The notes: a model not told the origin generated them from the sequence alone. Numbered from the stretch's first letter, positions 1,619 to 38,143 are shown. The stretch: 64,000 nt of DNA from a virus (IMGVR_UViG_3300046170_000502:1-64000), one strand, 5' to 3'. Numbers and translations are program-made.

Positions 1619-2614
1619 ATGAAAAAAATTTTAAGTTTTTCCAGCAGTATAAAAAAAGACTCGATCATTTGTCTTTGTCCAATGCGCAATGAAGAGCATA
1701 TTTTACATAGCTTCCTAGACCACTATTATTCGCACGGAGTCTCTCATTTTGTTTTTTTTGACAATTTATCTGATGATAATACAATTAATATACTAAAAGA
1801 CTTAAGCTCAAAATATAATATTGAAGCTTATATATGCGAAGAATCTTTTATTGGTTCCAAATGGGGTAGCAATTGGGCTAATGATTTTATGCAAAAATAT
1901 TGCATTGATAATTGGTGCATCACTATTGATGCTGATGAATTTTTTATGCCAAAAAATAACCAAAAGATAATAGATTTAATCAGCAATCTTGAAGCACGTA
2001 AATTAAATTCTGCGAGATCAATACTCGTAGATATGTATCCAAAAAACTTAAATTCTGTACATAACCAAACTATAGAAAGTTCTTGTTTTTTTGATCGGTT
2101 TAATGAAATATATTACAAAGATGGCTACAGCGATTTTGGTCAAAAATATGTCATGGGAGGACTTAGAAAAAGAGTTTATGATTCGTTTAATATGATCAGT
2201 AAATGCAGTTTATTCAAAAACGAATTTTATTTATCTCACCATGTTAGCGGGGGATGGCACTGGATCAAACCTTTATCTGAATTTTACAACTTCTATCTCA
2301 ATAATATAGCCATAGCACCAGTTTCATCAACATCATATTTTGATAAAAAATCTTACCTTGAAGCCGTTAAAAAAAGCTTAGAGACCGTTAGAGATACAGA
2401 AGCATTTTGCGCTCTTTTGCATTATAAATTTTTAAGAAAAGATATCTACGCATTTTTCCAAGAAAGAGTTGAAAGAAATCAAGATTGGAATGATAGCGAA
2501 GAATATAAAAATTATATTTCTCAAAAAGAAACATCATTTTTTCATGAGAGATACAGCGTAGATTCTTCTGATAATATCAATTTAGTATATAGCGAATTAA
2601 TTGATAAATTATGA
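1619..2614 (+). CDS. GT2-like glycosyltransferase (Glyco_tranf_2_4 type)
   Basis: CPMRNEEHILHSFLDHYY..FVFFDNLSDDNT; WCITIDADEF; ALLHYKF. Confidence 0.8.
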   Translation: MKKILSFSSSIKKDSIICLCPMRNEEHILHSFLDHYYSHGVSHFVFFDNLSDDNTINILKDLSSKYNIEAYICEESFIGSKWGSNWANDFMQKYCIDNWCITIDADEFFMPKNNQKIIDLISNLEARKLNSARSILVDMYPKNLNSVHNQTIESSCFFDRFNEIYYKDGYSDFGQKYVMGGLRKRVYDSFNMISKCSLFKNEFYLSHHVSGGWHWIKPLSEFYNFYLNNIAIAPVSSTSYFDKKSYLEAVKKSLETVRDTEAFCALLHYKFLRKDIYAFFQERVERNQDWNDSEEYKNYISQKETSFFHERYSVDSSDNINLVYSELIDKL

Positions 2615-7729: not shown

Positions 7730-7992
7730 TGTTTGACGATGGAATACATAATGACTTCGAAAAGGCTCACCAGAAAGGCTTGGGTAGAGGTTTTGATCTT
7801 GGATGGACTTATAAAGGGGAGTTTGATCGTTCAATAATCATTGATCAGTTAGATATTTTAGAAAAACAATACAATAAAGTATCCGACCCAGAAACAAAGT
7901 TGAGAATATTATCTCAAAAACAAATATTGCGAGAAGTACATTCAAAAATGAAAAATCATGTTAATAACAGAGAAGGGATAACTAAAAAATGA
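7726..7992 (+). CDS. Hypothetical protein
   Basis: Coupled ORF chain. Confidence 0.55.
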   Translation: MMFDDGIHNDFEKAHQKGLGRGFDLGWTYKGEFDRSIIIDQLDILEKQYNKVSDPETKLRILSQKQILREVHSKMKNHVNNREGITKK

Positions 7993-8224: not shown

Positions 8225-8300
8225 GCCACCTTAGCTCAGTTGGTAGAGCATTCGCCTTGTAAGCGAACGGTCGTCAGTTCGAATCTGACAGGTGGCTCCA
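8225..8300 (+). tRNA. trnT: tRNA-Thr(TGT)
   Basis: GCCACCT/AGGTGGC acceptor stem, anticodon arm TTCGC-CTTGTAA-GCGAA, T-loop TTCGAAT, encoded CCA. Confidence 0.97.
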
Positions 8301-8305
8301 CTTTA

Positions 8306-8399
8306 GGAGAGATGGCTGAGTTGGTTTAAGGCGGCGGTTTGCTAAACCGTTGAAGGGCTTATTGCCCTTCCGCAGGTTCGAATCCTGTTCTCTCCGCCA
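8306..8399 (+). tRNA. trnS: tRNA-Ser(GCT)
   Basis: GGAGAGA/TCTCTCC stem, loop TTGCTAA, long variable arm GAAGGGC-TTATT-GCCCTTC, TTCGAAT, CCA. Confidence 0.96.
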
Positions 8400-35758: not shown

Positions 35759-35835
35759 GGGGTAGTAGCTCAGTTGGTTAGAGTGTCTGCCTGTCACGCA
35801 GAAGGTCGCGAGTTCGAGTCTCGTCTATCCCGCCA
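35759..35835 (+). tRNA. trnD: tRNA-Asp(GTC)
   Basis: GGGGTAG/CTATCCC stem, TCTGC-CTGTCAC-GCAGA, TTCGAGT T-loop, G discriminator + CCA. Confidence 0.96.
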
Positions 35836-37222: not shown

Positions 37223-37476
37223 TGATCGAGTCGCTATCCCCAAAAGTTTCTATGTTCGCCACAGAACAAGAACTCCGAGAAGAGTTAACTGAAAAAGAAT
37301 ATGTTTATGTTAAACTCGCCAAGCTAAACGAACATATCGCTGATCTTTATCATTGCACACAATATCCAAACAATAAAATAATTGATGCAAATAACTCATA
37401 CAAATATATTAACCAAATACAACAAGACCTATTAAGAATAAATAGAAGAGCAAATAATAAAATTACAAATAAATAA
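37222..37476 (+). CDS. Hypothetical protein
   Basis: TAATG-coupled. Confidence 0.5.
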   Translation: MIESLSPKVSMFATEQELREELTEKEYVYVKLAKLNEHIADLYHCTQYPNNKIIDANNSYKYINQIQQDLLRINRRANNKITNK

Positions 37477-37485
37477 AAAAAGAAC

Positions 37486-37571
37486 TTGACTTTTAATCAA
37501 ATATAGAGTATAATACTCGTATAACAATTGAGAAATAAACTCAATCAAATAAAATAAATTGATCTTTAACA
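37486..37571 (+). promoter_or_regulatory. Sigma70 promoter plus boxA-like antitermination site
   Basis: TTGACT 37486, TATAAT 37509-37514; TGATCTTTAACA 37560-37571 (1 mismatch to E. coli rrn boxA TGCTCTTTAACA). Confidence 0.7.
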
Positions 37572-37584
37572 TTTTAAAAACTTT

Positions 37585-37794
37585 GGAGAGGTAGATATAC
37601 TTCTCCTGTGGGTGACCGAATAAGCCTGTCGTGAGCGGGCTAAAGTATGCAGATCCCTGTGGTAGGGTTGGTAGAGTTCAATCGAATGAGCCAAATGACA
37701 ATACCATGTCTAGTCTGTAGTTTGAAGTAGGTACACAATGAACTGATGTTCACGCCGAAAAATTGGAGGTATACAGTAGTCCTTCCCCACGCCA
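37585..37794 (+). ncRNA. Candidate structured non-coding RNA (~210 nt) ending in GCCA
   Basis: GC-richer, no sense ORF, at least 5 hairpins incl. a GUGA tetraloop, GTGGG/CCCAC closing helix, own promoter, boxA and terminator. Confidence 0.6.
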
Positions 37795-37816
37795 TTTTCT
37801 TAATCATGCATTCTAG

Positions 37817-37851
37817 CCTACTCAAGGTTTATTCCTTGGGTAGGTTTTTTT
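37817..37851 (+). terminator. Rho-independent terminator
   Basis: CCTACTCAAGG-TTTATT-CCTTGGGTAGG followed by T7. Confidence 0.85.
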
Positions 37852-37888
37852 GTTTGACAATGATTCGAAATCTGTCATACTAGTATAC

Positions 37889-38143
37889 ATGAATACATTA
37901 AAAAACATTCTTGCGAACTACGGATATATAACCAAACCACAACTCGCCGAACTCAACGAACACTTTCCACACATGAAAGTAGTAATCAAGTGGGGAGGCA
38001 TGCCCCGTGATCGAGTTCCTGTTCGCCAAGCAGTGAAACTCATTAAAAATATTGAATCAAAAAACATCGACTATTGCAGAGAAGTATTCTTCGCATCAGA
38101 TGAAATGAGTAAGCTTAGAGAAGTATTTCACATTGCACAATAA
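37889..38143 (+). CDS. Hypothetical protein
   Basis: Leaderless promoter at 37854. Confidence 0.55.
   Translation: MNTLKNILANYGYITKPQLAELNEHFPHMKVVIKWGGMPRDRVPVRQAVKLIKNIESKNIDYCREVFFASDEMSKLREVFHIAQ

Follow-up and report, generated by a model that had tools for sequence, protein, structure and literature searches.

The manA RNA was described as a riboswitch candidate by Weinberg et al. in 2010 (PMC2864571), and Rfam types the family, RF01745, as Cis-reg. Five manA RNAs have since been resolved by cryo-EM as RNA-only closed assemblies of 8, 10, and 60 subunits, which are pentamer-based (10.64898/2026.07.01.735769). Kissing loops hold the pentamers together: L5-L7', reported in all solved manA assemblies, is combined either with L8-L9' or with L3-L8' plus a GNRA-receptor contact of L6. 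All of these assemblies were obtained in vitro, with RNA and Mg at high concentration (10.64898/2026.07.01.735769). The helix names of that preprint (P1, P2, P3a/b, P4 to P7, P8a/b, and P9) match the numbering used here. A second described system with likeness to our locus is the rRNA antitermination leader (boxB-boxA-boxC; NusB/NusE/NusA/NusG/SuhB), together with further transcripts under BoxA control. The gamma-proteobacterial BoxA consensus is GYTCTTTAANA, in which mutations of C4 or T6 abolish function in E. coli suhB (PMC5725501), and the order of a hairpin followed by boxA is that of rRNA leaders (PMC10250234).

Here, we analyzed a 64,000-nucleotide stretch of viral DNA (referred to as the window throughout) that carries an RNA of this family at positions 37585-37795 on the plus strand. 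A cmscan search against Rfam 15 matched this RNA to RF01745 with 83.5 bits, against a gathering score of 55.2, and an E value of 8.9e-20. The match covered the whole model (positions 1-192 of 192) and was not truncated, and cmscan returned no Rfam family besides RF01745 for the RNA at E ≤ 1. The closest record (G001) carried the same RNA at 89.4 bits, and all 16 of the newly collected relatives on viral contigs whose copy is complete matched RF01745 at 79 to 93 bits. The sequence-only reading that preceded this work could not assign the RNA to tRNA, tmRNA, RNase P, SRP, or 6S and had named an Rfam hit as the result that would remove its novelty. Such a hit was obtained, full length and above threshold. 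Since the RNA is already catalogued, the claim of a new class falls; the window RNA is a member of the known manA family. The 5' untranslated region (UTR) placement on which the Cis-reg type is based is not the arrangement found in the window, where the RNA has its own terminator (37815-37853) followed by a separate promoter (37854-37881). This placement is a contextual annotation rather than a structural criterion, so membership in manA stands. The features of the locus are as follows.

37486-37514, plus strand: sigma-70-type promoter TTGACT-N17-TATAAT, 11/12 to consensus
37527-37545, plus strand: leader hairpin ATTGAG-AAATAAA-CTCAAT, boxB-like in position
37560-37571, plus strand: boxA-like element TGATCTTTAACA, with core GATCTTTAACA
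37585-37795, plus strand: manA RNA, helices P1 to P9, 211 nt
37585-37606: P1 hairpin
37608-37612 with 37786-37790: P2 closing helix, GUGGG with CCCAC
37624-37640: P3b hairpin
37630-37634, plus strand: L3 loop CGUGA, 5' partner of a long-range, putatively kissing, helix
37649-37654 with 37713-37718: P4
37655-37667: P5 hairpin
37659-37664, plus strand: L5 loop GUGGUA, complementary to L7 UACCA (37702-37706)
37669-37694: P6
37697-37710: P7 hairpin
37750-37754, plus strand: UCACG in the P8 region, 3' partner of L3
37765-37769 with 37781-37785: P9
37815-37853, plus strand: intrinsic terminator with a 13-bp stem (6 G-C), a 6-nt loop, and a T-run (hairpin at 37815-37846)
37854-37881, plus strand: promoter of the next gene, TTGACA-N16-CATACT, TG-extended, directly after the T-run
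37889-38143, plus strand: 84-amino-acid (84-aa) open reading frame (ORF), a neighbor outside the RNA gene, with a homologue downstream of manA in only 26 of 55 relatives

Motif scans separated two groups within manA, and 16 complete copies were confirmed with Rfam. The canonical cyanophage/marine manA (preprint constructs A0F1 and 67AA) and the window type have the same P1-to-P9 architecture, are both phage-borne and marine, and have in common the conserved blocks GUGAC-GAAUAA, L5 GUGGUR, L7 ACCA, and L9 GGUAUACAGUA. RNAs of the cyanophage-type group are 192 to 197 nt long, start 10 nt after the TATAAT box, and are followed ~35 nt downstream by GGAG and an ATG; in the 150 nt downstream of these copies, no T-run preceded by a hairpin of -10 kcal/mol or stronger was detected. 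Given the promoter-adjacent start, the lack of a terminator, and the ribosome-binding site and start codon ~35 nt on, cyanophage-type manA is a true 5' UTR. In contrast, the window type has a ~65-nt boxA-like leader and a terminator of its own. Its P6 is 13 nt longer and ends in a CAAUCG loop, whereas canonical P6 is short and GNRA-capped. Its P8 is rebuilt, with L3 complementary to the P8 region, whereas in canonical manA L8 and L9 are complementary (ACUGUA with UACAGU). We do not claim this cyanophage-type L8-L9 contact for the window RNA, in which the complementary segments have shrunk to 4 nt (ACUG with CAGU) that overlap with the stem of P8b.

At 34% G+C, the window is AT-rich phage DNA, with genes for a large terminase, for rIIA/rIIB and an ATP-dependent DNA ligase, and for three tRNAs. 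The large terminase is distant from those of cultured phages (~24% identity), and the TerL and rIIA matches, at 23 to 28%, were to diverse phages. The carrier is a large uncultured marine phage, not a T4-like cyanophage. Because blastn of window positions 37400-37950 against 50,697 phage records gave no match, we gathered manA relatives by motif scans. These came from IMG/VR contigs with lengths of up to 214 kb as well as from more than 120 contigs of metagenomes, for many of which the label was Tara or "marine metagenome"; every one of the listed manA-bearing metagenome contigs was at least 1 kb long. A strict two-block manA pattern returned nothing from 185,579 species genomes and, hence, no host or prophage copy of the window subgroup.

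The three phage tRNA genes of the window (Thr-TGT, Ser-GCT, and Asp-GTC, at 8225-8399 and 35759-35835) encode their own CCA, with a TTT... tract and a promoter-like site (TTGACA) behind every one of them. From tRNA-Asp, it is 1.75 kb downstream to the manA unit, which is outside any tRNA array. On one IMG/VR contig (L104:7424-7507, minus strand), a tmRNA 3' fragment (RF00023, 62.7 bits) was located at the end opposite to a cut-off manA copy; this fragment may be a piece of a phage-encoded tmRNA or the remnant of an integration site.

We tested the fold on a MAFFT alignment of 55 distinct cores, which are the ~210-nt relatives in the window's group from marine phage and metagenome contigs. The structure was derived from Rfam, with P4 added. 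Across the alignment, 98.1% of cells were paired, and 25 of the 55 pairs had changes on both sides. None of 500 shuffles reached any of the observed measures, and sliding the 3' partners by 1 to 3 columns left 37 to 49% paired. P2 was invariant inside the window subgroup but differed in a compensatory manner from the cyanophage type (GUGGG/CCCAC versus GGGAG/CUCCC). Hairpins P1, P3b, P5, and P7 and the closing helix P2, all of which had been drawn beforehand by the sequence-only reading, agree with the Rfam alignment and with the covariation counts; P3a, P4, P6, and P9 were missing from its list of hairpins. The hairpin that it placed at 37624-37640 is present, but the GUGA tetraloop assigned to it gives way to a 5-nt loop, CGUGA, that takes part in a long-range helix. 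For a further proposed hairpin at 37739-37752, 3 bp are supported, and the outer pairs compete with the same long-range helix. A mutual-information scan also returned an isolated covarying pair, 37723-37762, which was 98% paired (C-G in 34 sequences, G-C in 9, U-A in 8, and U-G in 3) and has non-canonical juxtapositions as its neighbors. This pair may belong to a P8a helix of non-canonical type that is specific to the window subgroup.

Transcription is predicted to start near 37521, as judged from the position of the promoter, and to yield a primary transcript of ~330 nt that ends at the terminator. A promoter of at least 11/12 was present within 250 nt upstream in 35 of 49 distinct relatives. 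A terminator, defined as a hairpin of -10 kcal/mol or stronger with a T-run within 175 nt downstream, was found in 51 of 53 relatives (42 distinct sequences) at a median of 25 nt downstream of manA; the same criterion picked out 8 of 132 random windows of the same contigs. Terminators that retain function and position but not sequence are strong evidence for an intended end of transcription at this point. A promoter-like site followed the terminator in 42 of the 51 relatives, often in the form of a conserved TGTTTGACAAT, and this motif was conserved right behind terminators that are unrelated to one another in sequence.

The predicted transcript of 331 nt, which runs from the inferred start as far as the terminator, folded better than 100 of 100 shuffled sequences (z = -3.1). 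The G+C content was 46.4% in the core, 33 to 37% in the flanks, and 18.6% in the leader. There was no conserved ORF in the core, where 56% of homologues carried net indels not divisible by 3. Neither the 84-aa ORF nor the other small flanking ORFs had a PHROG or Pfam match. The positions of promoter and terminator, conserved among relatives, support the reading of the locus as an independently transcribed, untranslated, structured RNA gene. An independent untranslated transcript had already been proposed by the sequence-only reading from the TTGACT-N17-TATAAT promoter, the GC-richer core without an ORF, and the terminator. Each of these elements was recovered here (the terminator stem with 13 pairs), and the proposal gains from the conserved placement of terminators whose sequences are unrelated.

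The core of the boxA-like element, GATCTTTAACA, matches GYTCTTTAANA at 10 of 11 positions, with A for Y at position 2. Within the 64 kb of the window, TGATCTTTAACA alone differs from TGCTCTTTAACA, the boxA word of E. coli rrn, by no more than 1 mismatch. At up to 2 mismatches, the boxA word was found 6 times against 11 expected in the window, which is no enrichment, so the significance of the element rests on its conservation in relatives and not on the window. The pattern TTG[AT]TCTTT[AT]A[CT]ATTTT was present in 95 of 116 distinct upstream regions of relatives, which bears out the earlier call of a boxA-like element at this site. Positions 3 to 9 of the box were invariant or nearly so in the 95 leaders, C4 and T6 included, and 16 relatives had a perfect GYTCTTTAANA. 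A GAGAA..CTC hairpin was located at most 75 nt upstream of the boxA-like element in 84 of the 95 relatives, and one lineage (L101) showed a compensatory change in this leader hairpin (ATCGAG/CTCGA). In the window, the boxA-like element lies ~40 nt past the inferred start, within a leader of ~65 nt. The distance from boxA to manA ranged from 10 to 280 nt among relatives, with extra modules inserted in other lineages; given this variable distance, the box is part of the promoter-proximal leader rather than of the manA fold.

Like the rRNA antitermination leader, the window leader has a promoter-proximal hairpin and then a boxA-like word. Both leaders are upstream of a long, untranslated, highly structured RNA, and the unit ends at an intrinsic terminator. 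Unlike in the rRNA leader, no boxC was identified in the window, position 2 of the box is A and not Y, and the element is phage-encoded. Antitermination of the rrn type acts mainly on Rho-dependent termination and is, thus, compatible with a unit that ends at an intrinsic terminator. From the conservation of the motif and of its setting, we consider it fairly probable that the boxA-like leader recruits Nus factors.

Several other leader arrangements were observed. An extra 65-nt module lies between the boxA-like element and manA in L001 (the same record as G001; ~1715-1790, minus strand) and also in L100, L103, and L114. In L101, L106, L110, and L115, inserts of 80 to 180 nt, some with GC-rich hairpins, precede manA. 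Given these lineage-specific inserts, the spacer between leader and manA is modular, and the window has its shortest form. In L073, L101, L106, L110, L111, L115, and L047, the leader hairpin has a loop that is complementary to nucleotides immediately 5' of the boxA-like element, with covarying pairs GAGGC/GCCTC, GGAT/ATCC, GGGT/ACCC, GGGGC/GCCCC, and AAGCT/AGCTT. This covariation, which is absent from the window leader, suggests a pseudoknot or a second helix in the leader of those lineages. Positions 37527-37535 and 37796-37804 of the window (AUUGAGAAA with UUUCUUAAU) have a 9-bp leader-trailer complementarity that is part of the minimum-free-energy fold and recalls rRNA leader-trailer helices, and similar GAGAA/UUCUC pairing recurs in many lineages. 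We do not claim a leader-trailer helix, which was no better than with shuffled trailers (45 combinations; mean z of -0.11, with 5 below -2). Nor do we claim the leader hairpin as a general phage signal, as the sole other TTGAGAA..CTCAA site in the window, at 7900 (~300 nt upstream of tRNA genes), is coding-looking and without boxA.

Covariation was also found between loops. The mutual-information scan pointed to a 5-bp helix between L3 and 37750-37754, which was Watson-Crick paired in 55 of 55 sequences and occurred in 8 combinations: CGUGA/UCACG, GAUGA/UCAUC, CGUUA/UAACG, UGUUA/UAACA, UGUGA/UCACA, CACAA/UUGUG, AAUGA/UCAUU, and CAUGA/UCAUG. All 4 of the counted pairs changed on both sides and were 100% paired. 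The complementarity of L5 with L7 was kept in all variants, with one compensatory change (GUGGCG/AUGCCA), and the pair 37664-37702 alternated among G-C, G-U, and A-U in the relatives. Among the manA RNAs with solved assemblies, those of Photobacterium (pho_A28C and pho34_A767, which form pentamers and decamers) have, by our own reading of Table S3, L3 UCAGC with GCUGA in L8, where the window has CGUGA with UCACG. The L3-P8 and L5-L7 complementarities are common to Photobacterium manA and the window RNA, and these are the contacts reported to hold the pentamers. The two RNAs differ in core sequence (GUGCAGAGAAUAA in Photobacterium versus GUGACCGAAUAA in the window), and Photobacterium manA uses the L6 GNRA-receptor contact, whereas L6 of the window is not GNRA. 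By this analogy, the L3-P8 helix of the window corresponds to the intermolecular L3-L8' kissing contact of Photobacterium manA. Covariation is blind to the difference between an intramolecular pseudoknot and an intermolecular kissing contact, so the intermolecular reading rests on homology. Judged by homology with the solved structures, both the L3-P8 and the L5-L7 contacts are more likely to be intermolecular than intramolecular.

In its genomic setting, a bacterial copy (L245:1150-1630, Photobacterium sp. SKA34) differs from the window: a promoter, promoter-like TTGCTT-N17-TATAGT, is directly upstream, there is no terminator, and ~250 nt separate the RNA from the next ORF. A boxA-like TGCTCTTTATAG is located just downstream of this RNA. 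The window RNA also bears a likeness to the large phage- or bacteria-associated RNAs of the GOLLD, ROOL, and OLE type, which are 500 to 800 nt long and form RNA-only multimers. These are phage-borne, abundant-looking, stand-alone structured RNAs with homo-oligomeric assemblies. They have no sequence or Rfam relationship to the window RNA (~210 nt), for which RF01745 was the sole match.

If manA acted in the window as a riboswitch-type cis-regulator, a ligand would modulate termination at 37815-37853 and, with it, read-through into the 84-aa gene at 37889-38143. The Cis-reg type in Rfam and the original description as a riboswitch candidate (PMC2864571) favor this explanation, as do the cyanophage-type copies located directly in 5' UTRs and a terminator within ~20 nt after the fold. 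The same downstream gene is kept in 26 of 55 relatives, and some read-through coupling is possible. However, no antiterminator pairing was found when the duplex energy of the terminator 5' arm with the upstream RNA was compared with that of shuffled arms for 42 distinct terminators (mean z of +0.33, with none below -2). In the window and in 42 of 51 relatives, a separate promoter for the downstream gene comes immediately behind the T-run, and this gene differs in about half of the relatives. In addition, no ligand has been reported in 16 years, and the cryo-EM preprint shows RNA-only multimers and not a ligand pocket (10.64898/2026.07.01.735769). We consider a riboswitch at this locus improbable. 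Since there is no antiterminator signal, the downstream ORF is present in only 26 of 55 relatives, and that ORF has its own promoter, we interpret the RNA as a gene product in its own right. What kind of product has a further candidate answer, since the sequence-only reading saw an acceptor stem and a CCA-like 3' end in the RNA. A tRNA-like RNA would use the closing helix as its acceptor stem, would be processed at GCCA, and would possibly be aminoacylated. The string CCCAC-G-CCA is indeed present at 37786-37794, and the tRNA genes of the window likewise encode CCA and then TTT. Yet the transcript is predicted to continue from GCCA (37791-37794) for ~55 nt until the terminator is reached, and P1 precedes the closing helix, whose 5' strand is internal. 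NCCA follows the closing helix in only 22 of 55 relatives (ACCA in 18, ACCT in 17, ATCT in 5, ACAT in 5, GCCA in 4, ACTA in 2, ACTT in 2, and others), and the cyanophage subgroup has CCCC or CCTT in its place. ARAGORN and the Rfam tRNA and tmRNA models were silent at the manA site. We therefore set the acceptor-stem interpretation aside, and regard a tRNA-like RNA as extremely improbable.

The alternatives to a Nus-binding leader concern the conserved TCTTTAACA. Instead of a Nus boxA, this might be a phage-specific signal that is processed by an RNase, is bound by a phage protein, or belongs to an alternative promoter, with the hairpin upstream possibly acting as a DNA operator. The departure of the window motif from GYTCTTTAANA at position 2 leaves room for this. 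Such words are also not rare in an AT-rich genome (the 6 found against 11 expected at up to 2 mismatches), and a TTGAGA-N16-TAAAAT that overlaps the hairpin scores as promoter-like (10/12). Against these points, the motif is unique in the window at up to 1 mismatch and is not reused at other promoters. It is always on the sense strand, between the promoter and the untranslated RNA, at a variable distance to manA. The 16 relatives with a perfect consensus and the invariance, or near invariance, of C4 and T6, which are the critical positions in PMC5725501, also argue for boxA, and the order of hairpin and box is that given for rRNA leaders (PMC10250234). An element other than boxA is, thus, the unlikelier case, though one with some weight.

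The explanation that we favor, with moderate confidence, is that the window RNA is a stand-alone, Nus-assisted, self-assembling structural RNA that acts in trans and is not a riboswitch. Host sigma-70 RNA polymerase would start at the promoter at 37486-37514 and transcribe the ~65-nt leader with its hairpin and boxA-like element. As in rRNA operons, this element probably serves to bring in NusB/NusE (the Nus complex) of the host, which would shield the untranslated transcript from Rho and aid its co-transcriptional folding. The polymerase would then transcribe the 211-nt manA fold and stop at the intrinsic terminator at 37815-37853, with the next gene using its own promoter, so that the RNA would be the product and not a switch for the neighboring gene. 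By analogy with the Photobacterium cryo-EM structures, the L5-L7 and L3-P8 loops most likely join copies of the RNA into pentamer-based closed oligomers. Conceivably, these oligomers would then work in trans in the course of infection, either as scaffolds or as decoy or sequestering particles.

A more far-reaching proposal, which we advance tentatively and as a possibility short of probable, is that the window lineage represents a third manA class carried by ~200-kb non-cyanophage marine phages. The RNA of this class would be made like a stable rRNA, with a Nus/boxA leader, a terminator of its own, and possibly a helix between leader and trailer, and would assemble in infected cells via the covarying L3-L8' and L5-L7' contacts into trans-acting, RNA-only closed particles. 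If this is true, manA would be a self-assembling phage RNA and not a riboswitch.

The comparative evidence weighs against the label of "riboswitch candidate" that manA has carried for 16 years: in this marine phage lineage, which is widespread, manA is a gene of its own, with a promoter and non-homologous terminators around it and an rRNA-style boxA leader ahead of it. The eight covarying loop-loop versions lend support from natural variation to a contact that has so far come from in vitro Photobacterium cryo-EM alone.
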